Shown in pieces: positions 5,307 through 29,766 of a stretch of DNA of 64,000 bases. A program made the position numbers and the translations under genes. Under the pieces are notes generated by a model that saw only the letters and a list, made by a program, of their open reading frames with translations, searched no databases and had not been told where the DNA came from. Every line of letters begins with the position of its first letter. Position 1 is the first letter of the stretch. Location of the stretch: contig JAGWJP010000001.1 of NCBI GenBank assembly GCA_028865725.1, positions 377,954 to 441,953 on the forward strand, written 5' to 3'. The DNA comes from Patescibacteria group bacterium. Lineage in GTDB: Bacteria; Patescibacteriota; Minisyncoccia; UBA6257; JACRHW01.

Positions 5307-6161
5307 TTGTGTATGCGTTATGTATTTTGGGGAACTCCTGAGTTTGCGGTTATTATCCTGCGCGGTCTTATAGACGGAGGGTATATTCCCTCCGCAGTTG
5401 TTACGAATCCAGATAAACCGGTAGGACGAAAACACATTATTACCCCCCCGCCGATAAAGCAGTATGTTGATGAATACTGTCTGCGTACAGGCGTAGTTAT
5501 TCCTATCTTGCAGTCCGAGAAAATACATGATATAGCCGAGCAATTGCGGGCGTTTATCCCTGATATATTTATCGTCGCCGCGTATGGAAAATTAATTCCA
5601 CCCTCTATCCTCGATATTCCCGCGAAAGGGAGTATTAACGTGCATCCGTCACTTCTCCCTCGTTATCGTGGTCCCACGCCCATTCAAACCTCCCTGCTCA
5701 ATGGTGATAAAAAATCTGGCGTTTCTGTAATGCTTCTTGACAAGCAAATGGATCATGGACCAATCCTTATGCAACGCGAAGCACCAATCGAGAAACAAAA
5801 TTACCTTGAATTATCAAAAGAGTTCGCAGAAATGGGTGCGCAGCTTCTTCTAGAAGCTATTCCAAAATGGATAGAGGGAAAGATTCAACCTATCTCGCAA
5901 AATGATAATGAAGCAACATTTACACGAATTTATACAAGAGAAGATAGTTTCCTTGACCTCACAAGTTCAATAGAAATGCTAGACCGTCAGATTCGCGCCT
6001 TAAATCCAGAGCCAGGTACTTATGTAATAAAGAATGGGAAACGTATTAAAATATTAAAAGCCCATATTGCTCATGATGTGCTTGTTCTCGACACCATCCA
6101 GCATGAGGGAAAGAAAGCAATGATCTGCGGAAAATCACTCGAAACTTTCCTTTCTCAATAG
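5307..6161 (+). CDS. fmt: methionyl-tRNA formyltransferase
   Basis: N-terminal VFWGTPEFA, HPSLLPRYRGPTPIQ, and a C-terminal domain; lies downstream of def. Confidence 0.9.
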   Translation: MCMRYVFWGTPEFAVIILRGLIDGGYIPSAVVTNPDKPVGRKHIITPPPIKQYVDEYCLRTGVVIPILQSEKIHDIAEQLRAFIPDIFIVAAYGKLIPPSILDIPAKGSINVHPSLLPRYRGPTPIQTSLLNGDKKSGVSVMLLDKQMDHGPILMQREAPIEKQNYLELSKEFAEMGAQLLLEAIPKWIEGKIQPISQNDNEATFTRIYTREDSFLDLTSSIEMLDRQIRALNPEPGTYVIKNGKRIKILKAHIAHDVLVLDTIQHEGKKAMICGKSLETFLSQ

Positions 6162-6163
6162 AA

Positions 6164-7180
6164 TTATGAGCGTGGCACTCCTTTGCATGCGCCAAAAAGG
6201 GTGATGCTGTCCCACGGTTTCCAGTTTGCGCCATTGCCAGACATTTCTGCAAATTTTTTAAGATTTGTAACCGGATCTTTTGCAGCTTGCACGCACTGTT
6301 CATACAACGCCTTGTCTTTAATGGTGCATGCATCCCGTTTTCCGAGCGGGGTAGAGGCTCCCTTACCTACGTAGTTATCAAACGCGGCGGGGCAGTTTAA
6401 GCCTCCAATAGAGTTTGCAGCAATGTTAATTTGTCCCAGTCCGAATACGGTGGATTGTGGTGTCGTATATCCATATTTACTTGGGTTATTATAGCCCCCG
6501 CAATAGGCAGTTGAAAGATATTGATCATTAGGATTAGGTGGAGAGATGTTGGGGTTGCCTCCGCTTTCTGCATTGCACACACACGCAGCAAGTTCTACAT
6601 TGTGTGTAAAAAATTGCTTGAGATAGTCTACCGAACAGAATCCTGTCGAAGAAGGTTTATATGTTTGTTGCGAAGATGCTGAAGAAGGCACCCATACCGC
6701 ACTTTCTCGTGTACTAAGCCCAATACTTTGTACGTTTTGATTAAGACCGATATTAAGTGGTTGGCTCGCGGTGCATGAAAATTTGTACCACGTGCCTTCG
6801 ATGTTGCTGCCCCCCGCGAGAAATCGTACCACGGTATTTACAATCACAAACGAACAGTAGATTATTACGAGCCACTTCAATGTCGACCAAATCATAGTGC
6901 GTGCCTCGTTAATTTTCCCCGTGTTTGAGCTGTAGACAATCATCAAGACTCCTGCGTAGGCAATGCGCAGAATAGCTACGACGGGGCTCCACGTGAGAAG
7001 AAAAAGATAGATATTATTAAGGAGCACCCCAAAATCGCATAGTCCGCAATTTCCCCCATTACACGGCACTAACCCTTGTGCAGACGCTAAAAATGGGAGA
7101 GTGATTAACAAAAGCGTACAGGAACATGCAAACAGAATTTTTCTAGCGAGATTTATAGACGGCAGCATAGTCATTAGCAT
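6164..7180 (-). CDS. secreted pilin-like (VirB2/TrbC-like two-TM) protein with Cys-rich C-terminal domain
   Basis: Signal peptide; conserved GLVPCNGGNCGLCD motif; two hydrophobic helices separated by a short loop; C-terminal domain with ...NAESGGNPN...GLGQIN...GNGANWKPW, weakly reminiscent of SLT lytic-transglycosylase motifs (ES / GLMQ / AYNAG); paralog of 7143..8183. Confidence 0.45.
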   Translation of the reverse strand: MLMTMLPSINLARKILFACSCTLLLITLPFLASAQGLVPCNGGNCGLCDFGVLLNNIYLFLLTWSPVVAILRIAYAGVLMIVYSSNTGKINEARTMIWSTLKWLVIIYCSFVIVNTVVRFLAGGSNIEGTWYKFSCTASQPLNIGLNQNVQSIGLSTRESAVWVPSSASSQQTYKPSSTGFCSVDYLKQFFTHNVELAACVCNAESGGNPNISPPNPNDQYLSTAYCGGYNNPSKYGYTTPQSTVFGLGQINIAANSIGGLNCPAAFDNYVGKGASTPLGKRDACTIKDKALYEQCVQAAKDPVTNLKKFAEMSGNGANWKPWDSITLFGACKGVPRS

Positions 7181-8183
7181 TCGAGCTGTATTTTACATTC
7201 GTATCCCAAAATTTATCTTTTGAATTTAATTTTCTGATAAGTGCTGGCTTTCCTGAGCCACTGTATCCATTTGGATCAACGAAGTAGATATCGTAACTTC
7301 CATCGCTTTGTGCTTTCATATCAAGTACCATGGTCCAATGTTCTCCGCTTCCTTCTCCTCTTGTGTGCGTTTGAAGAACCTCCCCCTTTGAAATATAAGT
7401 ATCTGCAAGATTTTTGAAAAATGAGTCTGGAGGATGAGCTCCTTTTGATACGGTGTCTGGTACAAGCCCTATGAACGTACCGCTATTATCCCCGAGTTTA
7501 TTCATATTTCTCGCACACGCAGTTGGTCCATAGGTTGGGTTGTTGGGATTATTTTGGTTATATGCAGACGGATTCATAAGATAATTGTTATACATTGTTT
7601 TTGCAAGCGGATTCAAATTGCTTACAATATCTGAAGGAAGACTGGTTGCTATTTTTCCTCCCGACGTAATTGTTCCTGTGGGATTGGAGGTTGGGGGGTT
7701 TAGTGCCGCACTTTCTGTTGTTCGTAGACCTACCATTAAGACGTTTTCATTGAGTCCTATTTGTGCCGCAGAACCTGTACAGGAGAAGGTAAGAAATCCA
7801 TTCGGACCGCCACGTTGTATTGCATCACCACCCACCGCCAGAAGTACCTGATCTACAATGAGCCAAGAACCAAACGCGATCGCGAGGCCAATAAGAGTCG
7901 TAATAATAAGTCCTCGAGATTTCTCTGCTTTTCCAGGATTCGCACTGTTGATAATCATTTGAACCCCGGCATACGTTAAAAGTCCAATGGCAAATAATGC
8001 AGCAATACCCAATAGCCACATATAAATATTGTGGATAAGGACCAGCACGTCGCAGAGAGAGCATTGAAGTACATCGCCTTGGCATGCGGAAGGAACGAGA
8101 CCTGCATCAGCCGCAAACACTGCGACAGGAAACAGAACAACTGATACAAGCGCGATCATAACTAATAAAAAACGAAATGGCAT
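7143..8183 (-). CDS. secreted pilin-like (VirB2/TrbC-like two-TM) protein with C-terminal putative papain-like hydrolase domain
   Basis: Signal peptide; GLVPSACQGDVLQCSLCD motif; two-TM hairpin; C-terminal Cys...His pattern (PTACARN ... GEHWTMVLD ... DPNGYSG), weakly NlpC/P60/CHAP-like; overlaps the downstream paralog by 38 nt. Confidence 0.45.
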   Translation of the reverse strand: MPFRFLLVMIALVSVVLFPVAVFAADAGLVPSACQGDVLQCSLCDVLVLIHNIYMWLLGIAALFAIGLLTYAGVQMIINSANPGKAEKSRGLIITTLIGLAIAFGSWLIVDQVLLAVGGDAIQRGGPNGFLTFSCTGSAAQIGLNENVLMVGLRTTESAALNPPTSNPTGTITSGGKIATSLPSDIVSNLNPLAKTMYNNYLMNPSAYNQNNPNNPTYGPTACARNMNKLGDNSGTFIGLVPDTVSKGAHPPDSFFKNLADTYISKGEVLQTHTRGEGSGEHWTMVLDMKAQSDGSYDIYFVDPNGYSGSGKPALIRKLNSKDKFWDTNVKYSSNANDYAAVYKSR

Positions 8184-8216
8184 GGTATATTTGGGTGGTT
8201 AACAATGCACAACTCT

Positions 8217-8570
8217 TTATGCAGCGGGTGGAGTAAGATTGGGGGGCAAGGGGGTAAATGAGTTTGAAGGAGGTGGAGTTGGGACGGAAGGCGCGGAAAC
8301 ACATGCTCCGGTGCGGCTCCCTAAAACTTCTAGTACTGCATAGACGAGACCTTGCGCGAACAAAATAACCGCAAGGCCTATCACGCTCCACTTAAGCGTT
8401 TCAGCACCCTTTTTCACACCTTGGCCGCCTTGCGAGGTGAGAAATTGAAACGCGCCTATAATGATATATACCACGACAAGTGCAATCCCGATATTTCGAA
8501 TAAATGCCGTGATATTCGCGATGATATCGCAAATTGTTTTTCCTGCGAGCGGATCGATAGCGTTAAACAT
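8217..8570 (-). CDS. small two-TM protein (pilin-like or holin-like), Pro-rich tail
   Basis: 117 aa; two TM helices separated by a short GGQGVKKG loop; C-terminal Pro-rich tail; no signal peptide or Cys motif. Confidence 0.4.
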   Translation of the reverse strand: MFNAIDPLAGKTICDIIANITAFIRNIGIALVVVYIIIGAFQFLTSQGGQGVKKGAETLKWSVIGLAVILFAQGLVYAVLEVLGSRTGACVSAPSVPTPPPSNSFTPLPPNLTPPAA

Positions 8571-8580
8571 ACTGTACAGA

Positions 8581-9093
8581 TTATTTCTTGTGTGAAAAAT
8601 TAGTAATTACTTTTATCTCACTGTTAGGAACAAAGTGTATGGCATCATCTTCGCCTTGTAATACTGTATTTTGGAAGTTTATTTCTTTCACCACGCCACT
8701 CACCCCTGCAAGAGTGACCGTGTCCCCCACTTCGTAAAATCCACTAAGAAGAAGCGAAAAACTGATTGCAAAGTTTTTAAGCGTCGATTGAAAACTAATT
8801 CCCGCAATAACTCCCACAACCCCCGCTCCCGTAAGAAGGGCGGTGATGTTGATGTGGAATTGAACGAGAATGACAATAATGGTTACAACCCATAGTACTA
8901 TTGTTGCGATACTGTCAATGAATCCAAGGATAGTGACAAGACGTTTTTTGTGAAGTAGTTGCGGAGTCGCGTGACGTACATGAAATAATACCCACGCAAG
9001 CGGACGTATGAGTTGTTTCGCTACATAAAATATCAACAGAATAATGCCGATGCGTACCGCGATATTATCAAAAATAGTGAGGTAGGATTCCAT
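8581..9093 (-). CDS. small-conductance mechanosensitive channel (MscS family)
   Basis: TALLTGAGVVGVIAGISFQSTLKNFAISFSLLLSGFYEVGDTVTL matches the MscS TM3/beta-domain signature. Confidence 0.7.
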   Translation of the reverse strand: MESYLTIFDNIAVRIGIILLIFYVAKQLIRPLAWVLFHVRHATPQLLHKKRLVTILGFIDSIATIVLWVVTIIVILVQFHINITALLTGAGVVGVIAGISFQSTLKNFAISFSLLLSGFYEVGDTVTLAGVSGVVKEINFQNTVLQGEDDAIHFVPNSEIKVITNFSHKK

Positions 9094-10543: not shown

Positions 10544-10936
10544 TTATAATAGATACTTCAAGGCCTCCGATAATTTTTGTTGTTGTTCCTCTATTTTCCT
10601 TACTCTTGATTCTAGTTTGGTTTGCGATGCTTGTATGCGCTCTTTTGCTTTTTGAGAAGTAAGAACATGATATGAAATCTCATCTGACTCAAAATCTTCT
10701 ATCGCGTGTGCCTCCCTCAAAATAATTTGGCCGCTTGGTAAGATGACAAGACGGTCATGCTGGTAATTTCCTTTTGTTGCAAGCGTAGCGGATGGGAGTT
10801 GCTTTTCTAGCTCTTCAAATACACGGTCTTCCTCAGCTGTAAATGATGTCTGAGAATTTTCCTTGGTGCTTTGAAGAATAGAAGAAATCAAAACCTCAAG
10901 TTGCCCCCCCTTTTTTTCTGTCGAAAAATTTTCCAT
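10544..10936 (-). CDS. hypothetical protein (coiled-coil C-terminus)
   Basis: 130 aa ORF with a coiled-coil-like tail; no recognisable domain. Confidence 0.35.
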   Translation of the reverse strand: MENFSTEKKGGQLEVLISSILQSTKENSQTSFTAEEDRVFEELEKQLPSATLATKGNYQHDRLVILPSGQIILREAHAIEDFESDEISYHVLTSQKAKERIQASQTKLESRVRKIEEQQQKLSEALKYLL

Positions 10937-15048: not shown

Positions 15049-16485
15049 TTAGTCAATAGCTACGGATACTTTGGCGCTATTTTTAGGTACCGAGGTAACC
15101 CAGAAGGGCCATAATGATATTTTTAGGGATTCAATTGCTGTATCGGTGCTCAGCAATTGTTTGATTTCATCGGTGTTTTTTCCAAGGATTGCGTGTGTGA
15201 GTGCTTTCGTATCGATAGGGGTACGCAACATGTCTTTTGCCTCATAGGAAAATGCGGCGAGCGTACGCGCATCATTAATGCGTAAGGTACCGTATGAGAG
15301 GGTCATATCCACTGATTCCAGAGAGCTTGCCTCTTGCAACAACAGATTTTGCGCAAGTGTTTTCACGTCGTCTTCTTTGAATCCAAGGGCGCGGAGTTCC
15401 ACAGTCCCCGTAAACTTAAACGATGAAACAGCATCCCCCAGTGCGTGGTCTGCCGACGAGTCGGTAAGTGTGTAGTCAGTCGCGCCATTTAAAAATATAT
15501 ATCCTTTTGATTTTTCAGTAAGCTCTGTGTTGAGAACTGTTTGTACTGAATTGATGATATCTGTTTTTGCATGTTGAATATCGTTGGCATTTACCGCTTG
15601 TATATTGCCCTCAGACCCCCCGCTCATCGTTTGCGTAGATTTACCATAGAAACCTTCATATCGCGCAGACCCTTTAAAGCCCGGGATAGTAAACGTAGTT
15701 GGCGCGATATTGAAAGAGGCTCCAGGCTGATCTGCCGTTACGTGTGCATCTATGAAATTGGGTACCAGTTTTCCTCCTACCAGCTTTGCTCCCGGGACAG
15801 TAATACCGGTATCAAGTCGGAACAATTTTCCATCGAGGGATAAAAAGCGCGTGGTTGCGATAAGACGTTGCGGACTCGTCGAATAGTTATTATAAATAGT
15901 AATACTGCCCCTTGCTTTTTGTGTTGATGTCTCTTTTGTCGTGGTATATTCTTTGGTGAGTGTGCGAGTGAGAGTAAACACTTTTGCCGGAATCGTTTGG
16001 TTTTGTGTATCTATTTCATGCACAGCGGTGGAGGCTGTTGCTGCGGATGTAAGCGATTTTATGGTTTGTTGAGCGTGAACAGTAATAGTTGCGCGAGGAA
16101 GAAGCACAGTAGCTACATACCATACCACGAGTAGGCACCCCAAACCTATCGCGATATTGATATATAAAACAGTACGCTTTCGTGGGGAAAAAGGATTAGG
16201 ATTGTCTTCGGGTTTTGCGTGCGTGTCAGGTACCTCCTCCTCATTATTGCGTTCTTTTTTCTTTTTAAATAGTTCCCAATGAGAGAGTGAATTCGAATTC
16301 TTCAAATCTTCCTTTGAATAGAGCGTTTCTATAGGATCCCTACCTTCTCGTTGGGGAGAGGTGGAATCGTGTCGCGGTTTTATATCAACTACAAGTGGGT
16401 GGTGATCAGACATGTTGCTAAGCTTACTGGTATTATACCAGATTTGCATCAAAACACACAATCCACATATAACACAGATTGACAT
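15049..16485 (-). CDS. membrane-anchored hypothetical protein with large extracytoplasmic domain
   Basis: Charged N-terminal region, single TM (VLYINIAIGLGCLLVVWYVATVLL), about 330 aa Thr/Ser-rich ectodomain; true start probably an internal Met. Confidence 0.4.
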   Translation of the reverse strand: MSICVICGLCVLMQIWYNTSKLSNMSDHHPLVVDIKPRHDSTSPQREGRDPIETLYSKEDLKNSNSLSHWELFKKKKERNNEEEVPDTHAKPEDNPNPFSPRKRTVLYINIAIGLGCLLVVWYVATVLLPRATITVHAQQTIKSLTSAATASTAVHEIDTQNQTIPAKVFTLTRTLTKEYTTTKETSTQKARGSITIYNNYSTSPQRLIATTRFLSLDGKLFRLDTGITVPGAKLVGGKLVPNFIDAHVTADQPGASFNIAPTTFTIPGFKGSARYEGFYGKSTQTMSGGSEGNIQAVNANDIQHAKTDIINSVQTVLNTELTEKSKGYIFLNGATDYTLTDSSADHALGDAVSSFKFTGTVELRALGFKEDDVKTLAQNLLLQEASSLESVDMTLSYGTLRINDARTLAAFSYEAKDMLRTPIDTKALTHAILGKNTDEIKQLLSTDTAIESLKISLWPFWVTSVPKNSAKVSVAID

Positions 16486-17115: not shown

Positions 17116-18342
17116 ATGTCATTTTCTGTTCACAAAGGCAGGATAGGAGCCGTGCTCGCCTTACTCCTTGTGGGAGGTGGAGTTTTGATATATTTTGCAT
17201 ATACCTCATCACGGTTACCCGGTTCATCTGTCCCATCCTCTCCCTCTTCGGTGCAGCAACCTTGGATAGAAGTTGTTACTCCTCCTGTGTTTGATGTCGC
17301 GACTCATAAGGAATTGCAAACAGGTGATGAGCTTGCTGAAGGTAGCACTGTCGAAGCCGGGCCTGCGGGTCTTGCAAACATTTATTTTGCCAACGGCTCA
17401 CTTATGCGTGTTGATTCCAATACCCGATTTACATTACAGAATGTTTCTTATGATACAAAAACACGTACTTCAGTTACCAGAATACAACTTATTATCGGGA
17501 GGGTGTGGTCAAAGCTTATTGCGCTTGCAACACCCGAATCGGTGTGGGAGGTAAAAACAGTAAATGCGGTGGCGACTGTGCGTGGAACCGCATTTGGTGT
17601 AGAATACACGCCGGATAATGGTGGTACCACGCGGATTATTGGTGCCGAACATCAAATTAGTGTAGGTTTGGTGGATCCCGCGACGCAGAATGTCGTCGCG
17701 GATAATGCGGCAACAGTAACCTCAGGAACTTATGTTCAGATTACGACTCCCGACGTAGGCCGTGTGATCGCACACCAGGTTCCTGTTTCAGAAGTCGTTG
17801 TGGTGAAGAAAACCCCCGATACTATTTTGCAGCAACCATGGATTCAGCAATCCTTACAGGCAGATACAACCGTGGATAATCAATTGCAATCACTTCACAA
17901 CGACGTCAATGCGTACCAGGGACTCGTTGAACAACGGAAAATAGAGCTTCAAAATACAAATGGAACTCGGCCCACAACCAGTATTTCTGTTCCTCTCGCC
18001 AGCACCACGCTTACTATTGAAACGAACATGAATACCGATGACAGTCTTGCGGTCGGTGCTACCACTTTTTTCCATGCATACGTGCATCTTGAGAATGGCG
18101 CTACACAAGACGTGACTCCACATGCATCGTGGCAAGTTCATGGACCAATCGGAACGATTACTTCGGATGGAATATTTACTGCCGCACTTGATTCTCAGCG
18201 CGAGGCATATGGAAGCGGAACCGGATTCATATCGGCCTCATGGGAAGATGCTGCTCACCGTGTTTACAGTGCATCTTCACCAACGCTTGTGGTCGAAATT
18301 CCCGAACCCGCTCCTCCCGCTAACACTGTTGAGGGACAATGA
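17116..18342 (+). CDS. FecR-domain protein with C-terminal Ig-like (Big_2-like) domain
   Basis: N-terminal TM; FecR-like beta-rich region (TRFTLQNVSYD...RVWSKL...VATVRGTAFGVEY); C-terminal HASWQVHGPIGTITSDGIFTA. Confidence 0.5.
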   Translation: MSFSVHKGRIGAVLALLLVGGGVLIYFAYTSSRLPGSSVPSSPSSVQQPWIEVVTPPVFDVATHKELQTGDELAEGSTVEAGPAGLANIYFANGSLMRVDSNTRFTLQNVSYDTKTRTSVTRIQLIIGRVWSKLIALATPESVWEVKTVNAVATVRGTAFGVEYTPDNGGTTRIIGAEHQISVGLVDPATQNVVADNAATVTSGTYVQITTPDVGRVIAHQVPVSEVVVVKKTPDTILQQPWIQQSLQADTTVDNQLQSLHNDVNAYQGLVEQRKIELQNTNGTRPTTSISVPLASTTLTIETNMNTDDSLAVGATTFFHAYVHLENGATQDVTPHASWQVHGPIGTITSDGIFTAALDSQREAYGSGTGFISASWEDAAHRVYSASSPTLVVEIPEPAPPANTVEGQ

Positions 18343-20111
18343 AGCAAGAACGCATTTCATTTTTTATCATTGGATTATGTGTGGGCATAGTAACCCTTAT
18401 TTCTTTGTGGGCTGGATTTTTTACTGGATTCGAACACATATTTGAAGATCTTTTGATAACGACGAAGCCTTTTAGCGATTCTATCGTGCTTGTGACGATT
18501 GATAATAGTTCGCTCGCTACCCTGGGGCAATGGCCATGGCCTCGAGCGTTTTTTGCACAAGCACTCACCACGCTGGAAAACGTTCATCCTAAAGCGGTGG
18601 GGCTTGATGTGGCGTTTTCCGAAGCATCTCGATTGGGTTCGGCAGACGATGAAGCATTGGCGGGTATTCTCAAAAACCTTTCCTATCCGCTCGTGTTACC
18701 CCTCGAGAGTAATGGCGCTCTTCATCTTGGGTATACACCTCCTCGTGTGGATTCTTTGCTCACGCCTCTCCCGTTATTTACTGACAATACCCACACTTCG
18801 CTTGGGGATGTTCATCTTGTTCCTGACGTAGACGGTGTTGTGCGCAGATTTGCCCCCCGCATAGAAGTTGGAGGGAATGCTACAGAGCAATACAATTCAT
18901 TTGGCTATGAGGTGGCGCAACAAGCACGCCTTCCTGTATCTCCGCTTCCCAACGATGCAACATTACGTATTGTTTACGCGGCCTCAACCGGACATATCCA
19001 ACGTATACCTTTTTCTCGTATCATCGATAACGATCCCACCGCTCTCTCGCTCCTCAAGAACAAAATTATTCTGATTGGTGCAACCGCGCCCGATCTTCAC
19101 GATGAACAGCGAACTCCTTCTTCCGGAGGGAGCAATATGAGTGGTGTAGAAATCCAGGCCAATATTCTGAATATGATTCTTTTAGGATATCGGGAAACAA
19201 ATCTTCCCTTTTTTCCCGCCTCCATGATTTTATTTTTCGTTGCGCTTATTCCTGCGCTTGTTTTCACTCTATTGAAAGGCGCGATAAAACCGTTACTGGT
19301 AAATGTCGCGTTAGGCGTGATATATCTCATCATTATTGTGCTTTTGTTTGAACAAGGCATTGTAGTAAATCTTGTACACGTTTCGCTTGCGTGGATCCTT
19401 TCATCGCTTTCACTTTTTGTCTATCGTTATTTCAGGGTCGAGCGCGAGAAACGTGAAGTACAAAAAATATTCTCAAAATATGTGTCAAGTGATGTACTGA
19501 ACCTTATTTTAGAACATCCGGAACACGTCGCATTGGGTGGTGAGGAGAAAGAGATCACCGTCCTCTTCACCGATATTCGGGGATTTACTACCATTTCTGA
19601 AGCGACATCACCCCAAGACTTGGTTCAGCTTCTTAATCGTTATTTTAGTGCGATGACAGAGGTGGTACTCAAGAACAAGGGATTACTTAACCAATATATT
19701 GGCGATGCCATCATGGCGTTTTGGGGTGCTCCCGTGAACGACCCTGATCAGGCAGACCATGCGGTAGAGACGGGATTTGAGATGTTAGAGCGACTTCATA
19801 TTTTAAATGAGGAATTTACGCGCGAAGGAAAACCCGCTATTCACATAGGGGTAGGAATTTATACCGGTCCTGCAGTGATTGGTAATATCGGTTCCGAGGT
19901 GCGTTTGGAATATACTGCGATTGGCGACACAGTAAATGTTGCCTCCCGTTTTGAGGGATTGAATAAGAAATACGAGAGCTCGATTATTATCGGAGAAACT
20001 ACAAAAGAAAAATTAAAACACGACTATCAGTTTAAGTTTCTCGATACCACGGAGGTAAAAGGAAGAAAAGAAGCATTGCGTGTTTATACTGTTGAACGCT
20101 CGTTAGAATAA
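18339..20111 (+). CDS. CHASE2-sensor class III adenylate/guanylate cyclase
   Basis: Periplasmic CHASE2-like N-terminal region, TM helices, then cyclase core VLFTDIRGFTTISE...YIGDAIMAFWGAP; start ATGA overlaps the FecR stop. Confidence 0.8.
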   Translation: MKQERISFFIIGLCVGIVTLISLWAGFFTGFEHIFEDLLITTKPFSDSIVLVTIDNSSLATLGQWPWPRAFFAQALTTLENVHPKAVGLDVAFSEASRLGSADDEALAGILKNLSYPLVLPLESNGALHLGYTPPRVDSLLTPLPLFTDNTHTSLGDVHLVPDVDGVVRRFAPRIEVGGNATEQYNSFGYEVAQQARLPVSPLPNDATLRIVYAASTGHIQRIPFSRIIDNDPTALSLLKNKIILIGATAPDLHDEQRTPSSGGSNMSGVEIQANILNMILLGYRETNLPFFPASMILFFVALIPALVFTLLKGAIKPLLVNVALGVIYLIIIVLLFEQGIVVNLVHVSLAWILSSLSLFVYRYFRVEREKREVQKIFSKYVSSDVLNLILEHPEHVALGGEEKEITVLFTDIRGFTTISEATSPQDLVQLLNRYFSAMTEVVLKNKGLLNQYIGDAIMAFWGAPVNDPDQADHAVETGFEMLERLHILNEEFTREGKPAIHIGVGIYTGPAVIGNIGSEVRLEYTAIGDTVNVASRFEGLNKKYESSIIIGETTKEKLKHDYQFKFLDTTEVKGRKEALRVYTVERSLE

Positions 20112-22082: not shown

Positions 22083-23489
22083 TTATGCGAATGTACGCGC
22101 TATTGTTTTAATCTTGTAGGACATAAGGACTGCAAGAAGCCCCACATCGCACCATAACGCGGTTGAGAGTGCGAATGCGATGCCGCTGAGCCCATATTTT
22201 TGAAGAAAGATAGGACCTAAAATGATGTACAACCCTGTATTCAAAAGGCTTGTGAGAAGCGGGGTGGTAGTGCTTTCAAGAATAAAGGATACGCGAACAA
22301 GGTAGGGCAAAAGCGCACTCGCGACAATACCGATATTCAAGTACATGAGTACAGCGCTTATCGCCGCGGCAGACTCCGGCTTTAAAGAACCATGTTGCAA
22401 GAAATATCTTACAATAATTTCACCTCCGTATGCAAACATGATAAAAAAGAGCACCCCAAGTCCTATAAGTTTCTTGAATGTAGAAAAAAACAATTGCGCG
22501 AATTTGTGTTTTGATTGAGCGTAGAGCTTTGCAAGCGCAGGAAAGCTTGCCGTGATGAGTGATATCGCAAAAATGTTAAGCGGGTAGTTATACATGTCGT
22601 ACGCAAAATTGAAAATTGCCACAGAGCCATTGGCAAGGTGAGAGATAAAGTTGAGGGTAATCACAAGGTTGATCTGAATGAGAATAATGTTAAGAACTCG
22701 TGGTAATGCGAGTGCAATTACACCCATGAGCTCTTGTAGAGTAAGGAGACGAAACTTGTGATTGTATCCTGACCCCAAAAAAGCGATAAGCTGAAGTGTG
22801 CTGTGTGCGAGTGCCCCCAACAACACACCAAATACTACCCCTTGAATCCCTAAGAATGGGGACAAAAAAAGAATGCCGCATATAATCCCAAGATTGTAGA
22901 GAATGGGTGCAATGGTGGTAATAAAAAATTTATTAAGTGTTTGTAGGGCACCAGAAGCAAGACTGGAAATACCTAGTAGAATAGGTTGAAGAAGCAGTAG
23001 TCGCGCAAGACGTATAGTAATATCTAATTTTTCTTTATTAAATCCCGGCACAAGCATGTGCATAAGAAGCGGCATCATGGCCAAAAGCACTACTGCAAGC
23101 ACGAGACTTAATAAAAGGTATCCATTAATAATCTTTGCGGCAAACTCCCATGCTTTTTCTTTTGATTCTGCCAATTCACGTGAAAATGTGGGAATAAATA
23201 CTGCTGAGAGTCCCCCTGTAATGATGAGGAGAAAGATAAGATCTGGAATACGGAACGCAGCAAAGTAGGCATCAAGTTGAGATGATGCTCCAAAATGAGC
23301 AGCAAGAAGTATATTTCTCCCGATAGAGAGTACGCCGTTTATGAGTGTTCCTGCGCCGATAGTGAGCGCTGAGGCGCTAATGCTGCGGGATTCGATGTGA
23401 AGTAATTTGTGAAATAGTGCACGCATAGTATAATGGTACTCGGTTTTTCCTTGAATTTCATCCCTCACCTTTAACGCATTTTTATGCAT
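22083..23489 (-). CDS. murJ: lipid II flippase MurJ/MviN family
   Basis: Multi-TM protein; SQLDAYFAAFRIPDLIF...FIPTFS pattern conserved in MurJ. Confidence 0.7.
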   Translation of the reverse strand: MHKNALKVRDEIQGKTEYHYTMRALFHKLLHIESRSISASALTIGAGTLINGVLSIGRNILLAAHFGASSQLDAYFAAFRIPDLIFLLIITGGLSAVFIPTFSRELAESKEKAWEFAAKIINGYLLLSLVLAVVLLAMMPLLMHMLVPGFNKEKLDITIRLARLLLLQPILLGISSLASGALQTLNKFFITTIAPILYNLGIICGILFLSPFLGIQGVVFGVLLGALAHSTLQLIAFLGSGYNHKFRLLTLQELMGVIALALPRVLNIILIQINLVITLNFISHLANGSVAIFNFAYDMYNYPLNIFAISLITASFPALAKLYAQSKHKFAQLFFSTFKKLIGLGVLFFIMFAYGGEIIVRYFLQHGSLKPESAAAISAVLMYLNIGIVASALLPYLVRVSFILESTTTPLLTSLLNTGLYIILGPIFLQKYGLSGIAFALSTALWCDVGLLAVLMSYKIKTIARTFA

Positions 23490-23544
23490 TACGTGAGACC
23501 GTAATAAATAAAGGTGAGAGGTTCATCCGAATGCGTAAGTTCTA

Positions 23545-25767
23545 TTATTGTCCATTCGAGGGAACAAGAGTCAATGTTATTGAAAGCTCCCTTGGATCGA
23601 TTGAGAAGTGGGTTCGATAGGTATCAAGCCCGGTTTCTTTAAAGACATACCCTGTGGGCGCGTTGATAGTCAGGTCGAGTACGCTCGTGACGCCCGATTG
23701 TTTTTGGTACGTGAGATTATAGATTGCATTGCTGAGGGGTGACGCAGAATTTGCAAGGAATCGAGTACTATATTGCAAGGTAATTTGTTGATGCTCCCCC
23801 GCCGCAAGCACGGACCAGCCCGCGTAGACTTTTTTCCCTTCCTCGGGATATGTTTCAAGCCCGTGGGTACCTGCCAACGTGACAGCGCGCGATTCGCTTG
23901 CAGCCAACAGAGGATCGGGCGCGGTATCAGGATTTGTTTTTGCGTAGGTGTGTGGAGTGAGCCCGGCAGCGTAGGACAACGCGGTGTTTAGGGGAAGATA
24001 CGCCCTCACATAATCCTTGTTCGTACTTCTCCATAATGCAAACGAGGCTTGGTCTCCGTTGTGGGCTCGTGACACGATAAGGGTGTGGCTCGCGGTACCA
24101 TCTGAACGCAAATCAATCGTATCATTTATTTTCTGCGTAATTACGTAATCACTCTTTCCTCCTGCGACGTTTGAATCAATAAATGCAAGATAATCTTCGA
24201 GCGCACTTGAAGCTGTAATGTGCCCATCGTACCCTAATGTACGCAATGATTCTGCCGCTTGCGTGAGGTCGGGGTTTATCATCGCAATTTGTATTTCTTT
24301 TTCGTCAAGCATAGCCATTACGACAGAAAATATGTCTTGTTTGTGGGGAAGCGCCGAAAGAGCAGTTAAAAAGCGCGGGATAAAAATCTTTAAGATACGT
24401 TTCGGATCTCCGTACGTACTATTATCTCCTCCGAATTCAACAGTATTTTGAACGCTTTCCATAAAATTATCGCTCGAGATCGACATGTTATATTCTGGCA
24501 TTTCGATCGGTCCAGTTTTTTTCAAAAGTTCTGTTACTAATTTTGTATTCACTGCGATAACCCCGTCTATGGTGCGGTGCGGATTTGTGTCTAGTTTTGA
24601 TGCTTCAAAAAACTCAGCGGCTTTTTGGGCAGAAGTAGGAAAATCGAAAAACCAGTTTGCGTCCCGTGTACCCCAAGTAGGAGTGATATTTTGTAACGCT
24701 TTTGGTGGCGTTATTTTTTCAGCCAATTGACCGTCCAAATCATAGATATTCCGAATATCCATAGCAGTAATTTTTCCGTTCTGAAGGCTTACGAGCATAT
24801 AACTTCCCCAAAAACCTCCCGTCGCACGCAGTTCTGAAGGATTTTGAAATGCAATAAGATACGTCCTTGGTGTATTGTGATCTCCCAGCGCGCGCGCGAG
24901 CATTTCAAGTGCGAGATGGCTATCGTTTAATTCATTTTGAAGTGCAAAGTATTGATTTTTCAGGCTTTGTGACCAGTCTTTCATGCCGGGCAAAACAGAC
25001 AGATCAGCAAGGTTAGTAATAATCTTTGGAGTTGCATGAGAAATGGTGATTAGCTTAGTGTCGATGTTTTTTATAGTCTGGATGTTTATTCCTGCACCAA
25101 ATGCATTTGTTACGCTTGAATTTAGAAGAGAGTTCATGTCATCCGCGATTGTTAACGAAGTCGCTAACATAGCGCGGAGCTCATCGACTAGAGAAAATGG
25201 AGGCGCATACAATATTTTTGCTGCCGATGCCTTATTAAGTAATATCTCGAGAGCATTCAATGAGGATTGTGCAACGGTCAAATGTTCTTTGCCTGCTTTG
25301 AAATTAAAATGCTTAAAGTCAGTAATTCCTTCTTCGATATTTTGATAGACATCTTTTCCCAAGGCCTGCAGGCGATCGTAGTGGTCTACCACCGATACTT
25401 TTACTGCGGCACTATATGCGATAACGAGAATAACGCATCCTAGCACGATCGGCTTGATATGTGATATACGGAACAATCGATGGATCGTTCGATTTATTAC
25501 AATTTTTTTAGCGGGATTCGGACGTTTAAACAGCTGTGACGTAATGTTTTTATTGCGAAAAACAATATCAGAAAATAATATGTTTCCTTGCGAAACACTA
25601 CATTCTCGAGCACGAATAGGCCCTAAATTAATAACTGGGTTTGGGATTTTCGTGCAAATCATATCTAAAAACCCATCTTTCATGGGTCTCACGTCAAAGA
25701 GAATTTGAAGAACAAGACTACGTTGTACCACAACCAGGCGGTGTTTTAATTGAATAATGCAAAACAA
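23545..25767 (-). CDS. DUF4012-like envelope protein (hypothetical)
   Basis: N-terminal TM, then a large domain with NPSELRATGGFWGSYMLVSLQNGKITAMD, resembling the E.R..GG core of DUF4012; adjacent to glycosyltransferases. Confidence 0.4.
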   Translation of the reverse strand: MFCIIQLKHRLVVVQRSLVLQILFDVRPMKDGFLDMICTKIPNPVINLGPIRARECSVSQGNILFSDIVFRNKNITSQLFKRPNPAKKIVINRTIHRLFRISHIKPIVLGCVILVIAYSAAVKVSVVDHYDRLQALGKDVYQNIEEGITDFKHFNFKAGKEHLTVAQSSLNALEILLNKASAAKILYAPPFSLVDELRAMLATSLTIADDMNSLLNSSVTNAFGAGINIQTIKNIDTKLITISHATPKIITNLADLSVLPGMKDWSQSLKNQYFALQNELNDSHLALEMLARALGDHNTPRTYLIAFQNPSELRATGGFWGSYMLVSLQNGKITAMDIRNIYDLDGQLAEKITPPKALQNITPTWGTRDANWFFDFPTSAQKAAEFFEASKLDTNPHRTIDGVIAVNTKLVTELLKKTGPIEMPEYNMSISSDNFMESVQNTVEFGGDNSTYGDPKRILKIFIPRFLTALSALPHKQDIFSVVMAMLDEKEIQIAMINPDLTQAAESLRTLGYDGHITASSALEDYLAFIDSNVAGGKSDYVITQKINDTIDLRSDGTASHTLIVSRAHNGDQASFALWRSTNKDYVRAYLPLNTALSYAAGLTPHTYAKTNPDTAPDPLLAASESRAVTLAGTHGLETYPEEGKKVYAGWSVLAAGEHQQITLQYSTRFLANSASPLSNAIYNLTYQKQSGVTSVLDLTINAPTGYVFKETGLDTYRTHFSIDPRELSITLTLVPSNGQ

Positions 25768-26918
25768 TTACGATAGTGCGCTACCGCACTATTCCAATTA
25801 AATTGTACCGCATTTTCTTTTCCTAGCCTAATAAGACGGTTTCGTGTTTTTTCTTCTGTGAGGGCAACAGAGATAGCCTCTGCAATATCCAAACGGTTAT
25901 AAGGATCTACAAGTAATGCCGACTCTCCCAATATTTCTGGTAACGATGCGCGGTTGGATGCTACTACCGGGGTCTGCGAGTATTGTGCCTCAAGAGGTTG
26001 AAATCCAAAGCCTTCAAAAAAACTTGGGTATACAAATACACGAGCTGCTTGATACAACTTTGGTCGGTCTTCTGATGAAACTTGGATTAATTTAATACGG
26101 TTGTGATATGGCGACCGTGCGATCGCTTCAAGACATTGTTCAAAAAGCCACCCCAAGTTTCCCGCGAGTACCAGCGATATTGTATCGTGTTTTTGAAACA
26201 CCAACTCCGCTGCGTGAATAAGAGTAGTGATATTTTTTCGCGGTTCGATTGTGCCGAGATATAAAATAAACGATTCAGGAAGTTTGTGAATAGCCTTGAA
26301 CTGTTCGATTTCCTCGTCGCGGTAGGAAGCGGAGAAAATTGGATTTATTCCGTGATAAATAGTACTCACGCGTTTTTCAGGAACATGAAGCAAATTTACG
26401 ACATCATCTTTTGTGCATTGAGACGGGGTGATGATATGGTCAGCATGCTTGATTTGACGCTCCACATTCATCCAGCGAAGCCACACGTGTTGCCGTAACG
26501 AAAAAAACTGAGGAAATCGCAAGAATGAGAGATCGTGAACCATAAGAATGCGTGGCGCACGTTTCAAGGGTGTTAATAGAAAGTGCGGGCTGAAGAAAAG
26601 ATCGCTCTTCGTTATTTCGTCGAGGAATGGGACTCCTAGTATTTTTGCGGAAAAGTTTTGAAGCCTATTGGGATGTGTAGTTGCCACTACTTCTCTATTA
26701 TCAAAATACGGGTCAAGCTTTCGTGTCGCCGCATTGTAATAAAACGTATATAAATTGTTTGCGTCTTCCGGAACAAGGTGCTTTGCGAGTTGGAGCGTAT
26801 ATTCCTCAACCCCTGTCACGCGCCCCGTGGAAAGTACTCGAAGATCGAATCCTATGCGCATATTATTTGTACATAATCTCAGTATATCAAGATTGATTGT
26901 CTCTATCCATTGCGGCAT
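25746..26918 (-). CDS. glycosyltransferase family 4
   Basis: C-terminal VYPSFFEGFGFQPLEAQYSQTPVVASN (GT4 EX7E region). Confidence 0.8.
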   Translation of the reverse strand: MPQWIETINLDILRLCTNNMRIGFDLRVLSTGRVTGVEEYTLQLAKHLVPEDANNLYTFYYNAATRKLDPYFDNREVVATTHPNRLQNFSAKILGVPFLDEITKSDLFFSPHFLLTPLKRAPRILMVHDLSFLRFPQFFSLRQHVWLRWMNVERQIKHADHIITPSQCTKDDVVNLLHVPEKRVSTIYHGINPIFSASYRDEEIEQFKAIHKLPESFILYLGTIEPRKNITTLIHAAELVFQKHDTISLVLAGNLGWLFEQCLEAIARSPYHNRIKLIQVSSEDRPKLYQAARVFVYPSFFEGFGFQPLEAQYSQTPVVASNRASLPEILGESALLVDPYNRLDIAEAISVALTEEKTRNRLIRLGKENAVQFNWNSAVAHYRNCFALFN

Positions 26919-28005
26919 AGTGGCGCAAAAATTCCTGTTCTATATTTGTACGCAACGTATTTCGAAATACATCACGGGAAAATGGCAGTGCTGATTCGCG
27001 GCATGCGGCATGTGTAATATGATATGTGTCCAATTTATGGATCGCATCTGCGAGAGATTCTTTTGTTTGTTCCTCAAAGAATACTCCATTGTAACCGGGT
27101 GTTATGATCTCTGTTGGCCCACCTCCGCGGGCAAATGCGACGACAGGTGTGCCACATCCTAGTGCCTCCACGGGTACAAGCCCGAAATCTTCTTCGTGTG
27201 GAAAAATGAGTGCCCTACTTGCAGAATAACAATCACGCAATGTTTCATCAGATACGTGCCCCAGAAATTCTATGTTGTGGTTGGCACGTGCTTTGAGCGC
27301 ACGATATTCTGGTCCGACACCTATAATTTTAAGCGGGAGACCCAACATGTTAAATGTATCCACCACAAGGTCAAACCGTTTATAGTGCAGCAACCTCCCT
27401 ACTGCACAATATGTGGTTTCCTTTGCACGCGTGGAATAAAAAAAGTCGGTTCTTACTGGAGGGTAGATTATTCTCGTATCACGTCCGTAGTAACGTTTTA
27501 TTTTACGAGCAATATGGTTTGAGATCGTGTACATCACGTGCGGCGCACGCGATGTTTTTAGATCCCATGCTTTCAGGAATGTACGAAGCGGGGTTACCCC
27601 ATAATGCAACGCACGAAACCACGGATATGTTTCCAAATATTTTTCTTCCCATGCATATCGCAATGGCGTATAGCAATAATTAATGTGTAAAATACGGGGG
27701 TCGGCCGCGAACCCCTTCGCAAATCCACTCGAATCAGAGAGGATAAGATCAAAATCTCGTATAAAAAAAGCCTGTGCGGCAAGCGGCATAAGGGGAATCA
27801 TGTAATGATGGCGGCGGGTGCCTCCAGGAACATGTTGAAGAAACGAGGTGTGGATTGTTTTGTTGTGAAACTCTCCGTGCGTACGCTCCTCATCATAGAG
27901 AAGCGTAAAAATTGGTGCTTCAGGGAAAAGCGAAGTGAGTTCATGTAACACGCGCTCCGCTCCTCCAAGCTGATTCAAGTAATCATGTAAAATCGCAACT
28001 TTCAT
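26887..28005 (-). CDS. glycosyltransferase family 4
   Basis: MKVAILHDYLNQLGGAERV...FPHEEDFGLVPVEALGCGTPVVA. Confidence 0.8.
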   Translation of the reverse strand: MKVAILHDYLNQLGGAERVLHELTSLFPEAPIFTLLYDEERTHGEFHNKTIHTSFLQHVPGGTRRHHYMIPLMPLAAQAFFIRDFDLILSDSSGFAKGFAADPRILHINYCYTPLRYAWEEKYLETYPWFRALHYGVTPLRTFLKAWDLKTSRAPHVMYTISNHIARKIKRYYGRDTRIIYPPVRTDFFYSTRAKETTYCAVGRLLHYKRFDLVVDTFNMLGLPLKIIGVGPEYRALKARANHNIEFLGHVSDETLRDCYSASRALIFPHEEDFGLVPVEALGCGTPVVAFARGGGPTEIITPGYNGVFFEEQTKESLADAIHKLDTYHITHAACRESALPFSRDVFRNTLRTNIEQEFLRHYAAMDRDNQS

Positions 28006-28010
28006 AGAGG

Positions 28011-28613
28011 TTATACCGCGTTAGAATCAGTGAAAATGATAGCTACTGTTTTCACTATAATACGAAGATCTTCCTTGAATGAGGGTTGTTTAAGATACAT
28101 GTTATCAAGCTCTAATTCTTTAAGAAACGGAAGCGCCGAGGCGCCACTTACCTGCGAAAGCCCTGTGACGCCTGCTTTTGCAAACACAATATGTCGAAAT
28201 TCTGAAGGGTAGTGATCCACTTCTTCTTTTTCGTGCGCGCGCGGACCGACAAGCGCAAGCTCGCCACGAAGCACGTTGATAAGCTGAGGAAACTCATCAA
28301 TACGATATTTGCGCAATACCTTACCCACACGCGTGATACGCGGATCGTTTCTCATTTTAAAAAAAGGACCATCGTTGCGTTCGTTGAGATGCAAAAGATC
28401 ATTTCTCATCAGATGAGCATTCTCCACCATAGTTCTAAATTTATAGATGTTAAAGAGTTTTCCTCCGCTCACGCGCGGAATTTTTACGAGCACCGGTCCT
28501 CGTGATGATACCTTTATCGCACACGCAATGAAAGGCCAAAACGGAAGAATACAAAATAATCCTGCGATTGCTCCGCACACATCAAGCGCTCTTTTTACGA
28601 GGCGTGAGTACAT
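28011..28613 (-). CDS. undecaprenyl-phosphate sugar phosphotransferase (small bacterial sugar transferase, WbaP C-terminal-domain type)
   Basis: LKRALDVCGAIAGLF...NIYKFRTM...DEFPQLINVLRGELALVGPRA. Confidence 0.8.
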   Translation of the reverse strand: MYSRLVKRALDVCGAIAGLFCILPFWPFIACAIKVSSRGPVLVKIPRVSGGKLFNIYKFRTMVENAHLMRNDLLHLNERNDGPFFKMRNDPRITRVGKVLRKYRIDEFPQLINVLRGELALVGPRAHEKEEVDHYPSEFRHIVFAKAGVTGLSQVSGASALPFLKELELDNMYLKQPSFKEDLRIIVKTVAIIFTDSNAV

Positions 28614-29364: not shown

Positions 29365-29757
29365 GGGTTGCGGGTGGACAGTCGCGAATTAAGGAAACTT
29401 AATTTGAGGAAAGTCCGGACACTCATTGTTATTCGCAAGAGTAGCATAACAATAACGGGTAACACCCGTCGCCCGCCCTGGGCGGATAGAGGTGCGAACA
29501 GAGACGTCGCAATCGAAAGAACGCGACACCCTGGGAATTCTTAGGGTGAGCTTCTGTGGTAACACAGAAGGTGCAACGGCCAAATCCTTATTGGGTGCAA
29601 GGTCGTGCCCAGCACCACTTTTATGCTTAAAGAAAGCATAAAAGTGGTGCTGGGAGTGCCGCTACGATTCCTTCAAGTAATTGAGGAACTCAGATAAATG
29701 GCTGTCGGTCCGATGTTACATCGGACTACAGAATCCGGCTTATAACCCACAACCCTA
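29365..29757 (+). ncRNA. rnpB: RNase P RNA (bacterial type A-like)
   Basis: Conserved P4 strands GAGGAAAGUCCGGAC and ACAGAAUCCGGCUUAU; AGGGUGA element; P1 pairing GGGUUGCGGGUGG with ACCCACAACCC; long perfect apical hairpins. Confidence 0.8.
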
Positions 29758-29766
29758 ATAAAAATG

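Follow-up and report, generated by a model that had tools for sequence, protein, structure and literature searches.

What might three tandem genes for pilin-like proteins be doing between the gene for an MscS-like channel and fmt, and why should two of these proteins carry long and dissimilar C-terminal parts? The question is raised by a 64,000-nucleotide stretch of the genome of a Patescibacteria group bacterium (assembly GCA_028865725.1, contig JAGWJP010000001.1, positions 377,954 to 441,953 of the forward strand), the whole of which is here called the window. The three genes, which we term pC, pB, and pA in the order in which they are read, had been pointed to in an earlier note, made from sequence alone, as a cluster of pilin-like proteins of which two are fused to putative peptidoglycan hydrolases. 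The best reading of what we have found, as based on sequence comparisons, is one of peptidoglycan hydrolases that are exchanged between lineages and are displayed, outside of the membrane, upon a pilin-like carrier that is itself conserved. The array, by which we mean pC through pA, is made up as follows, with signal peptides as predicted from hydropathy and their cleavage sites as placed by inspection.

8217-8570, minus strand: pC, an open reading frame (ORF) of 117 amino acids (aa)
8220-8315, minus strand: Pro-rich tail of pC, residues 86-117
7143-8183, minus strand: pB, an ORF of 346 aa
8112-8183, minus strand: pB signal peptide, residues 1-24, predicted cleavage between VFA and A
7773-8111, minus strand: pB pilin-like module, residues 25-137, with C34, C41, and C44, a first transmembrane helix (TM1), the basic loop NSANPGKAEKSR, a second transmembrane helix (TM2), and C135
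7614-7772, minus strand: pB junction (IGLNENV..VGL.T.ES) plus low-complexity linker, residues 138-190
7146-7613, minus strand: pB C-terminal orphan domain, residues 191-346, with the candidate residues Cys223, His282, and Asp303
6164-7180, minus strand: pA, 338 aa by longest ORF or 334 aa with the NCBI start
7079-7180, minus strand: pA signal peptide, residues 1-34, predicted cleavage between ASA and Q
6767-7078, minus strand: pA pilin-like module, residues 35-138, with GLVPCNGGNCGLCD, TM1, the loop SSNTGKINEAR, TM2, and FSC
6641-6766, minus strand: pA junction plus Ser/Pro-rich linker, residues 139-180
6167-6640, minus strand: pA lysozyme-like (SLT_3-type) domain, residues 181-338, with 8 Cys and with GLGQIN at residues 247-252
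6566-6568, minus strand: codon of pA Glu205, a catalytic candidate within an ES motif, by family alignment

An ORF check bears out these three ORFs, their coordinates, and the overlap of pB with pA as first described, with that overlap being 38 nucleotides (nt) between the longest ORFs or instead 26 nt given the start found in the NCBI record. The motifs that had been quoted are likewise all present, i.e., GLVPCNGGNCGLCD, NAESGGNPN, GLGQI, GNGANWKPW, TACARN, and GEHWTMV. Mature pA and pB come to about 300 aa each, about 200 aa of which lie past the module, and a small, hairpin-only size fits pC alone.

The N-terminal region of all three proteins is, as judged from profile matches, a two-helix module of the VirB2/TrbC type (the Pfam T4SS_pilin family, T4SS being the type IV secretion system). 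Against the T4SS_pilin profile, PF18895, with a gathering score (GA) of 26.6, pC reaches 39.4 bits and pB 30.4 bits, both above GA and both in support of the pilin-like nature first proposed for them. The score of pA is 15.5 bits, below GA, but pA is nevertheless counted as being of this type because it is homologous to pB. That is, over their first approximately 160 residues the two are 39% identical (E=1e-25), which makes them true paralogues, just as had been suggested. With TrbC (PF04956, GA 27.9) pC and pA score below GA at 18.9 and 15.4 bits, respectively, and pB has no match at E up to 1, though C-type orthologues from relatives exceed that threshold at 33.7 and 28.6 bits. There are in addition weak NCBIfam matches of the module to the Mbov_0395 pilin-like conjugal transfer family. 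Searching the PDB with a profile of the module found no VirB2 or TraA structure, only a spurious match to the transmembrane portion of RibU.

By hydropathy, pA and pB consist of a signal peptide followed by two long hydrophobic helices, and pC of the two helices only. The inter-helix loops of all three modules are rich in Lys and Arg, and by the positive-inside rule these loops would be cytoplasmic, thereby placing both ends of the hairpin, along with any C-terminal domain, outside of the cell membrane. An AlphaFold2 (AF2) model of pA possesses a helical hairpin spanning residues 45-82 and 87-121 with a predicted local distance difference test (pLDDT) score of about 80, and residues 123-172 which follow are below 50. 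A- and B-type modules have four invariant Cys, three of them in GLVPC..C..CD prior to TM1 and one in FSC following TM2. Given those positions, all four should be extracytoplasmic and could form two disulfides, probably stapling together the outer ends of the hairpin. The claim that pA and pB share one architecture holds for the signal peptide, the hairpin, and the presence of a C-terminal domain, but the Cys motif seen in pA is present in pB as a variant, GLVPSACQGDVLQCSLCD. The junction that follows the module in pB is common to pA as well (E=2e-5), and C-terminal processing of VirB2-family propilins, e.g., of RP4 TrbC, offers a precedent for possible cleavage at such a conserved junction.

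The pA C-terminal domain appears, by its alignment with relatives, to belong to the lysozyme-like SLT_3 group (PF18896, GA 27), which is in line with the weak SLT-like elements that had been noticed there. SLT_3 is matched by seven of nine aligned family members and SLT (PF01464) by four of the nine, with the pA homologues P0003, P0004, and P0013 carrying precomputed PF18896 matches. Within the family alignment E205, S206, G247, Q250, W323, and three Cys are invariant, and in the AF2 model E205 falls at the end of a helix (residues 195-206). The profile of the family's C-terminal domains finds, in the PDB, c-type lysozymes (1ivm at E=7e-5, 6ukc at E=2e-4, and many human lysozyme entries), aligning ES with lysozyme Glu35-Ser36 and G(L)xQIN with DYGIFQIN. 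The column of the c-type Asp52/53, however, is occupied by Val245 in the case of pA and by Ser in the consensus of the family. Enzymes of glycoside hydrolase family 23 (GH23) make do with a single catalytic Glu, and c-type lysozymes are retaining enzymes. With its Glu205 lacking an equivalent of Asp52, the pA domain is therefore more likely a lytic transglycosylase or g-type muramidase, i.e., GH23-like, than it is a c-type lysozyme.

What makes the array more than a pair of individual fusions is its occurrence in relatives. Locus scans of genomes and of metagenomes returned three loci each. The array is syntenic in at least six related loci, and in related Parcubacteria/Patescibacteria loci a block recurs which reads ...rpoA-rplQ-rplM-rpsI-murA-mscS-[array]-fmt(convergent)-def-priA-ctpA.... 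The corresponding neighbours in the window are as follows:

8581-9093, minus strand: MscS-like channel gene, directly upstream of pC by 10 nt; PF00924, 49.2 bits
9168-10472, minus strand: murA, upstream and in the orientation of the array; TIGR01072, 480.5 bits versus a cut-off of 392.7
5307-6161, plus strand: fmt, convergent with the array; Formyl_trans_N/C match

Both MscS and MurA had been named earlier as neighbours, and these scores confirm the two. The MscS-like gene is a conserved left border of the array, keeping its position in L003, L005, L007, and L009, and fmt is a conserved right border, as seen with L003, L005, and L007. The full order, MscS-[array]-fmt, is thus found in the window, L003, L005/L006, and L007. 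The L009 locus keeps the MscS side only, and L010 and L011 have parts of the array with neither border.

Between these borders the N-terminal modules can be sorted into three types of orthologues whose order matches that of the window, and their identities to the window's own types are 52-60% (C), 49-62% (B), and 55-64% (A). The C-terminal parts, by contrast, are unrelated, with pA versus P0002 as the exception. Domain contents by slot, with profile scores in bits, are these:

Window: slot C none, signal peptide lost; slot B orphan domain; slot A SLT_3-type
L003: slot C 'domain X' with a Cys...His pattern, 412 aa; slot B CHAP-like; slot A SLT_3-type (P0002)
L005: slot C 'domain X', split as 289 plus 105 aa; slot B NlpC/P60, 67.8; slot A 'P12-type' Cys-His domain
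L007: slot C CHAP, 41.2; slot B glutaredoxin, then module, then NlpC/P60-like, 22.8; slot A Glucosaminidase, 28.1 (GA 30.2)
L009: slot C none, signal peptide kept; slot B Peptidase_C39_2, 23.2; slot A not on contig
L010: slot C Peptidase_M23, 46.9; slot B1 Peptidase_M23, 34.2, and B2 Peptidase_C39_2, 26.1; slot A partial, domain not on contig
L011: slot C not on contig; slot B P12-type; slot A partial, domain not identified

The CHAP (41.2), NlpC/P60 (67.8), Peptidase_M23 (46.9 and 34.2), and Peptidase_C39_2 (26.1) matches are above GA, and the CHAP-like domain in slot B of L003 is 45% identical to the CHAP domain of L007 (E=2e-34). Wherever recognisable by sequence, then, the exchanged C-terminal domains are of peptidoglycan hydrolase families, with glycan-cleaving enzymes found mostly in slot A and peptide-cleaving enzymes in slots B and C. 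Among six B-type proteins block-wise identity is 0.70-0.83 over the hairpin (residues 41-120) and at most 0.2 past approximately residues 140-160, and four A-type proteins display the same collapse of identity following the hairpin. As this is where block-wise identity drops, the junction plus linker is the point of exchange, and the hairpin is the most constrained part.

More distant proteins that combine the module with SLT_3-like domains were found in ENA, Logan, and JGI data (P0003, P0005, P0006, P0008, and P0009), as was one, P0014, that joins the module to a CHAP-like domain in a non-syntenic context. A profile search of a set of 5.8 billion proteins, with its candidates capped at 8,000, contributed little more. 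Protein P0015 (387 aa) has fibronectin-III domains N-terminal to its pilin module. Proteins P0004 and P0013 (469-473 aa) have SLT_3 behind a long Gly/Ala/Ser-rich region and transmembrane segments, and these two lack a PF18895 match. The L008 locus (positions 112-1151 of the Saccharibacteria contig CAYRVA010000087.1) has three pilin-module matches within about 1 kb, spread over two overlapping frames, and looks like a tandem array of small pilins, possibly with a frameshift.

Some of the relatives show further peculiarities. The B-type protein of L007 (9620-10897, plus strand) carries, before its module, an extra N-terminal secreted glutaredoxin/thioredoxin-like domain (WCGAC; PF00462, 30.1 bits), a fusion hinting that disulfide formation in the four-Cys motif matters. 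In L005 (7208-8527, plus strand) the C-type 'domain X' gene is in two ORFs, 289 aa plus 105 aa, versus the intact 412-aa orthologue of L003, for which we can envisage a frameshift, a pseudogene, or an error of assembly. A membrane-anchored PD40/TolB-like beta-propeller of 374-378 aa lies between the B and A slots in L003 (2862-3998) and L007 (8481-9605, plus strand) and is absent in the window. Small transmembrane ORFs follow the B-slot genes of L003 (99 aa), L009 (147 aa), and L010 (240 aa), but are not consistent across loci.

Where does this leave pC? Its N-terminal module is 52-60% identical to those of C-type orthologues bearing CHAP, M23, or 'domain X', but pC is missing two parts that orthologues carry, a signal peptide and a C-terminal domain (412 aa in L003, 367 aa in L007, and also in L010). 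The Pro-rich tail of pC aligns where those orthologues have the linker to their C-terminal domains, and slot C of L009 is a module-only version as well, one in which the signal peptide is kept. The gene product may be a minimal 'pilin proper', or instead pC may be a decaying gene. Of the two identities that the earlier note had offered for pC, a pilin proper or something holin-like, the pilin-type module is what stands. A holin we have rejected, i.e., with pilin-family matches only in Pfam, no holin match there or among PHROGs, and no phage context.

What, then, would such an array do? The locus is an array of three conserved slots, each for a modular VirB2/TrbC-like protein. These proteins would be exported via Sec, following which the hairpin would insert into the membrane with its basic loop in the cytoplasm and both ends facing outward. 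The C-terminal domain would be held at the wall by a flexible linker of 40-50 residues that follows the conserved junction. Slot A (pA) would supply an SLT_3 glycan-cleaving domain, slot B (pB) a candidate peptidase or amidase, and slot C (pC) the hairpin only, with the array being co-transcribed with murA and the mscS-like gene. Enzymes so positioned, at the outer face of the producer's membrane, would open the producer's own wall for growth or for the passage of a surface filament. That is, we envisage a set of wall-opening tools that are tethered at the surface and work upon the sacculus of the producer, either by giving a VirB2-type module a VirB1-type function in cis or by way of general autolysis, and to this we give about an even chance of being correct.

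This own-wall reading fits the housekeeping, operon-like context. Counting for it also is the tight spacing within that context, with 10 nt from the stop of the MscS-like gene to the start of pC, 33 nt from pC to pB, and then the overlap of pB with pA, the stop of pA lying in turn 2 nt from that of fmt. So too does the report that VirB1 homologues are missing from most of the Patescibacteria genomes in which VirB2 homologues occur (Quinonero-Coronel et al. 2025, PMC12102498). What the sequences show is homology, synteny, the layout of the proteins, and the swapping of domains. Topology, enzymatic activity, co-transcription, and the own-wall target are, all of them, what we infer from sequence.

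Several results pull in the opposite direction. Close relatives differ in their C-terminal domains in a way that one would sooner expect of proteins for conflict or for interaction with a host than of housekeeping autolysins, and the hairpin being the most conserved part points to self-assembly or to a specific partner, e.g., a T4SS, rather than to mere anchoring. Promoter and terminator scans of the array region gave background levels only. For pA, the SLT_3 score is 21.7 bits at full length and 25.0 bits for the C-terminal domain alone, both under GA. The pA model, built from an eight-sequence alignment, has a pLDDT of 62.6 and no significant fold match, as Foldseek of this full-length model against the PDB returned helical noise only (E>1), and against BFVD its top matches were SLT proteins but were not significant. 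The pB domain modelled with a pLDDT of 39.7. Lastly, an exhaustive phmmer search of 1.84 billion representatives with the pB C-terminal domain matched only that domain itself plus one repeat protein, P0016, leaving its hydrolase nature to be argued from position in the array only.

Because the B slot of relatives holds peptide-cleaving hydrolases, the pB C-terminal domain is nevertheless most likely a peptidase or amidase, and possibly a very divergent C39/papain-like one. The papain/CHAP-like identity originally read from TACARN and GEHWTMV has indirect hints only in its favour, as there is no Pfam, NCBIfam, or PHROG match to the domain, its comparison by hhalign with the C-terminal domains of relatives gave probabilities below 1%, and its AF2 model, made without an alignment, is the poor one just mentioned. 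Neither can the domain be described as Cys-rich, as had been claimed for both C-terminal domains, for it has one Cys (C223), along with three His. That description does apply to pA, with its 8 Cys. Also, tblastn of the relatives' C-terminal domains against the window found no frameshifted remnants. A phmmer match of full-length pB to Candidapepsin among PDB sequences (E=0.002) lies over the low-complexity linker and was judged to be compositional.

An alternative is that this domain is a binding or adhesin-like module, or a pseudo-enzyme, that is merely displayed by the carrier, which we consider to be somewhat doubtful. A lack of any catalytic-family match, at any threshold, is as such a module would have it, and module proteins are known from this analysis that carry non-enzymatic domains, e.g., the fibronectin-III domains of P0015. 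The sole outside match points in the same direction. P0016 is a 2,416-aa protein with about 17 repeats, each ending in TDGSYDVYVVDAAGN, the pB counterpart of which is DGSYDIYFVDPNG. All that the two have in common is a 26-residue motif, DGSYD(I/V)Y(F/V)VD, and the match is probably one of a shared beta-hairpin motif rather than of domain homology. It is this beta-hairpin motif (DGSYDIYFVD in pB) that is repeated 17 times in P0016, whose make-up suggests a surface protein. Against a non-enzyme, those B-slot domains of relatives that can be identified are peptidoglycan peptidases without exception, and C223, H282, and D303 of pB occur in canonical papain order. The low-confidence AF2 placement is compatible with the latter, with C223 on a short helix, H282 just before a strand, and D303 just after the next strand. 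The best pairwise BLAST match of the domain is, furthermore, to the C39-like domain of the B2 protein of L010, a weak similarity (E of 0.02-0.06) that includes GxH(W/I)xM...DGSY. When pB is aligned three ways with C39-like domains, however, it has Tyr in the column of the canonical Cys, with Cys223 coming four residues later, and this again would favour a non-enzyme. We take papain-like to be a lead, that is, and not a result.

A second alternative keeps the enzymes but changes their target. The array could encode host-directed polymorphic effectors, with the VirB2-like module serving as a trafficking or assembly domain for a T4SS encoded elsewhere and the payloads cutting the wall of the host bacterium. 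The module might be extracted from the membrane into a pilus as a minor subunit, or be shown at the site of contact, and domain swapping would then track host wall chemistry. A conserved N-terminal module with unrelated C-terminal domains in close relatives is indeed a hallmark of polymorphic toxin and effector families, and the hairpin, as the most conserved segment, is unusually strongly kept. Homologous pilin arrays are found in T4SS clusters, and Southlakia cannot grow as an epibiont without them (Wang et al. 2023, PMC10633639; PMC12857230). A T4SS elsewhere in the genome is plausible as well because 2,407 of 3,026 Patescibacteria assemblies (approximately 80%) carry a clade-specific VirB4 (PMC12102498, the supplement of which does not list the assemblies studied here). 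The variable small transmembrane genes that follow some B-slot genes in relatives could, in addition, be immunity proteins.

On the other side, no VirB3-, VirB4-, VirB6-, or VirD4-like gene is found among the window ORFs that were profiled (approximately 1-28.6 kb), nor are there T4SS genes within 10 kb to either side of the arrays in L001, L003, or L005, going by gene tables, or in L007, going by ORF size and synteny. There is no immunity-like ORF between pB, pA, and fmt, as pB and pA overlap and pA abuts the convergent fmt, and the array resides within a housekeeping, operon-like block. A domain of approximately 160-200 aa on a VirB2-type subunit is without structural precedent, and a pilus is not so far known from any T4SS of the Patescibacteria. 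Overall we find host-directed effectors somewhat unlikely. Still broader would be the claim that VirB2-like modules serve in general to deliver a varied set of polymorphic peptidoglycan hydrolases, as presented at host contact by the Patescibacteria T4SS or pilus, with the host wall being breached by the fused subunits or else by domains set free through cleavage at the junction, and with swapping being adaptation to host wall chemistries. That we consider to be unlikely.

Alternatively, similarity to pilins might be incidental, with the hairpin being a generic two-helix anchor for ordinary autolysins outside of T4SS biology. The lack of T4SS genes nearby, pA falling under the GA of both PF18895 and PF04956, and the failure of the module profile to match any VirB2 or TraA structure in the PDB would all be expected if so. 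Both pB and pC pass the PF18895 GA, however, C-type orthologues pass that of TrbC, and there are the weak NCBIfam matches to a pilin-like conjugal transfer family. Hairpin and loop are also kept far more strongly than is expected of a passive anchor, and we judge a generic anchor to be improbable. A phage-type lysis cassette (holin plus endolysins), or decaying remnant thereof, is suggested by a small two-helix protein adjoining wall hydrolases and by pC being shortened at both ends relative to orthologues, but is highly improbable given that PHROGs yield nothing below E=0.05 (only phrog_814, of unknown function, to pC at E=0.079), that no phage genes were found in the window, that several genomes keep the array in synteny amid housekeeping genes, and that the hydrolases have their own signal peptides and membrane modules.

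As to the rest of the window, searching it with a hidden Markov model of the module found no further pilin module anywhere. Further upstream, beyond murA and in the same orientation, come a 130-aa ORF (10544-10936, minus strand, without a Pfam or NCBIfam match) and then rpsI, rplM, rplQ, rpoA, rpsD, and rpsK. The MurA of the window reads LGGDKIGPRPVD where the E. coli enzyme has GGCAIGARPVD, so that the Cys115 targeted by fosfomycin is presumably replaced by Asp, as is also seen with naturally fosfomycin-insensitive MurA enzymes. There is a 478-aa ORF (15049-16485, minus strand), also without a Pfam or NCBIfam match, and at 17116-20111 on the plus strand genes for a FecR-domain protein (408 aa) and a CHASE2-adenylate/guanylate cyclase (590 aa) overlap by 4 nt, this being a sensory nucleotide-cyclase pair in a small genome. 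An envelope-polysaccharide cluster follows (22083-28613, minus strand), consisting of a MurJ-like flippase, a 740-aa DUF4012 protein, two GT4 glycosyltransferases, and a Bac_transf sugar transferase. Adjoining this cluster is the RNase P RNA (29366-29758, plus strand), and the window also has a tRNA-Pro. From 28.6 to 64 kb, going by ORF sizes only, there are apparently mostly ribosomal-protein and translation-factor genes.

Why should such an array matter? Much of the diversity of bacteria is accounted for by Patescibacteria, which live attached to other microbes. In the one species tested, epibiotic growth depends upon the T4SS and upon its arrays of VirB2-like 'pilins', the role of which is unexplained (PMC10633639, PMC12857230). 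The locus considered here shows that hydrolase domains can ride on the VirB2-like module itself, with relatives exchanging this payload among at least five enzyme families. For one role of the module it thus offers a testable hypothesis, i.e., the bringing of wall-cutting enzymes to a defined place, whether the wall there is the producer's own or that of a host, and relatives supply a set of natural domain swaps for experiments. Should the proteins be anchored autolysins only, then the gain would be a modest improvement in annotation.

How does the array compare with what is already known? Pilin arrays, co-occurrence of PF18895 with PF18896, and the individual hydrolase families are all in databases already, where relatives go by such names as 'C40 family peptidase' and 'Type IV secretion system pilin' (NCBI/JGI). 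The statement of the earlier note that fusions of this kind are not a standard described architecture was overstated in that database proteins, e.g., P0003, have both Pfam families, but it stands for the searchable literature, in which we found no account of peptidoglycan hydrolases being carried by VirB2-like modules, nor of a murA-mscS-linked three-slot array, nor of payload exchange between orthologous slots.

With SLT_3, GH23, and GH22 lysozymes pA has in common the ES motif, the GLxQ(I/V)N motif, and richness in Cys, with the family profile aligning over Glu35 and the beta-sheet region. It differs in that pA alone is below the SLT_3 GA and, from c-type lysozymes, in having Val245 at the Asp52/53 position. 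In modular type IV pilins, such as PilB and PilC of Streptococcus sanguinis, a pilin module carries a bulky, functional C-terminal module, and the pilin module would be a carrier here too. Those proteins, however, belong to a type IV pilus system, have a single-helix pilin fold with class III signal peptides that is unrelated to the present hairpin, and bear modules that are adhesive rather than peptidoglycan hydrolases. Polymorphic toxin and effector systems (CdiA-CT, Rhs, LXG, and type VI secretion amidase effectors) combine a conserved N-terminal trafficking part with exchanged C-terminal enzymes, among which peptidoglycan hydrolases are common payloads. The resemblance is that close relatives share the N-terminal part and yet have C-terminal domains that are unrelated, but the present array has no cognate immunity gene in the window, and what carries the domains is a hairpin in the membrane, not a secretion domain that is soluble.

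Closest in terms of the module are the PF18895 pilin arrays of Patescibacteria, 441 of which have been described with 2-11 genes each, these being divergent paralogues (Quinonero-Coronel et al. 2025, PMC12102498). The Pfam module is the same, as are the tandem paralogues and the monoderm host from the candidate phyla radiation, and the 39% identity of pA to pB is within the reported range (PMC12102498, PMC10633639). Those arrays, though, are of small pilins and often near virB4, whereas here pA and pB bear a C-terminal domain following a 40-50-residue linker, the neighbourhood is ribosomal, murA, and fmt with no T4SS gene found in the part profiled, and C-terminal domains are swapped between orthologous slots. 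Closest in terms of payload are the VirB1-type hydrolases TraG (pIP501), PrgK (pCF10), and TcpG, which, as cited in PMC12102498, are membrane-anchored and combine SLT/lysozyme-like, CHAP/NlpC-P60, and LytM/M23 activities in opening the wall for a T4SS. These same enzyme families occur in the present array. As portrayed there, VirB1-type hydrolases are single multi-domain proteins with a plain N-terminal transmembrane anchor that are encoded inside T4SS clusters, whereas in the array, away from any T4SS cluster found, each enzyme would sit upon a VirB2-like hairpin of its own.

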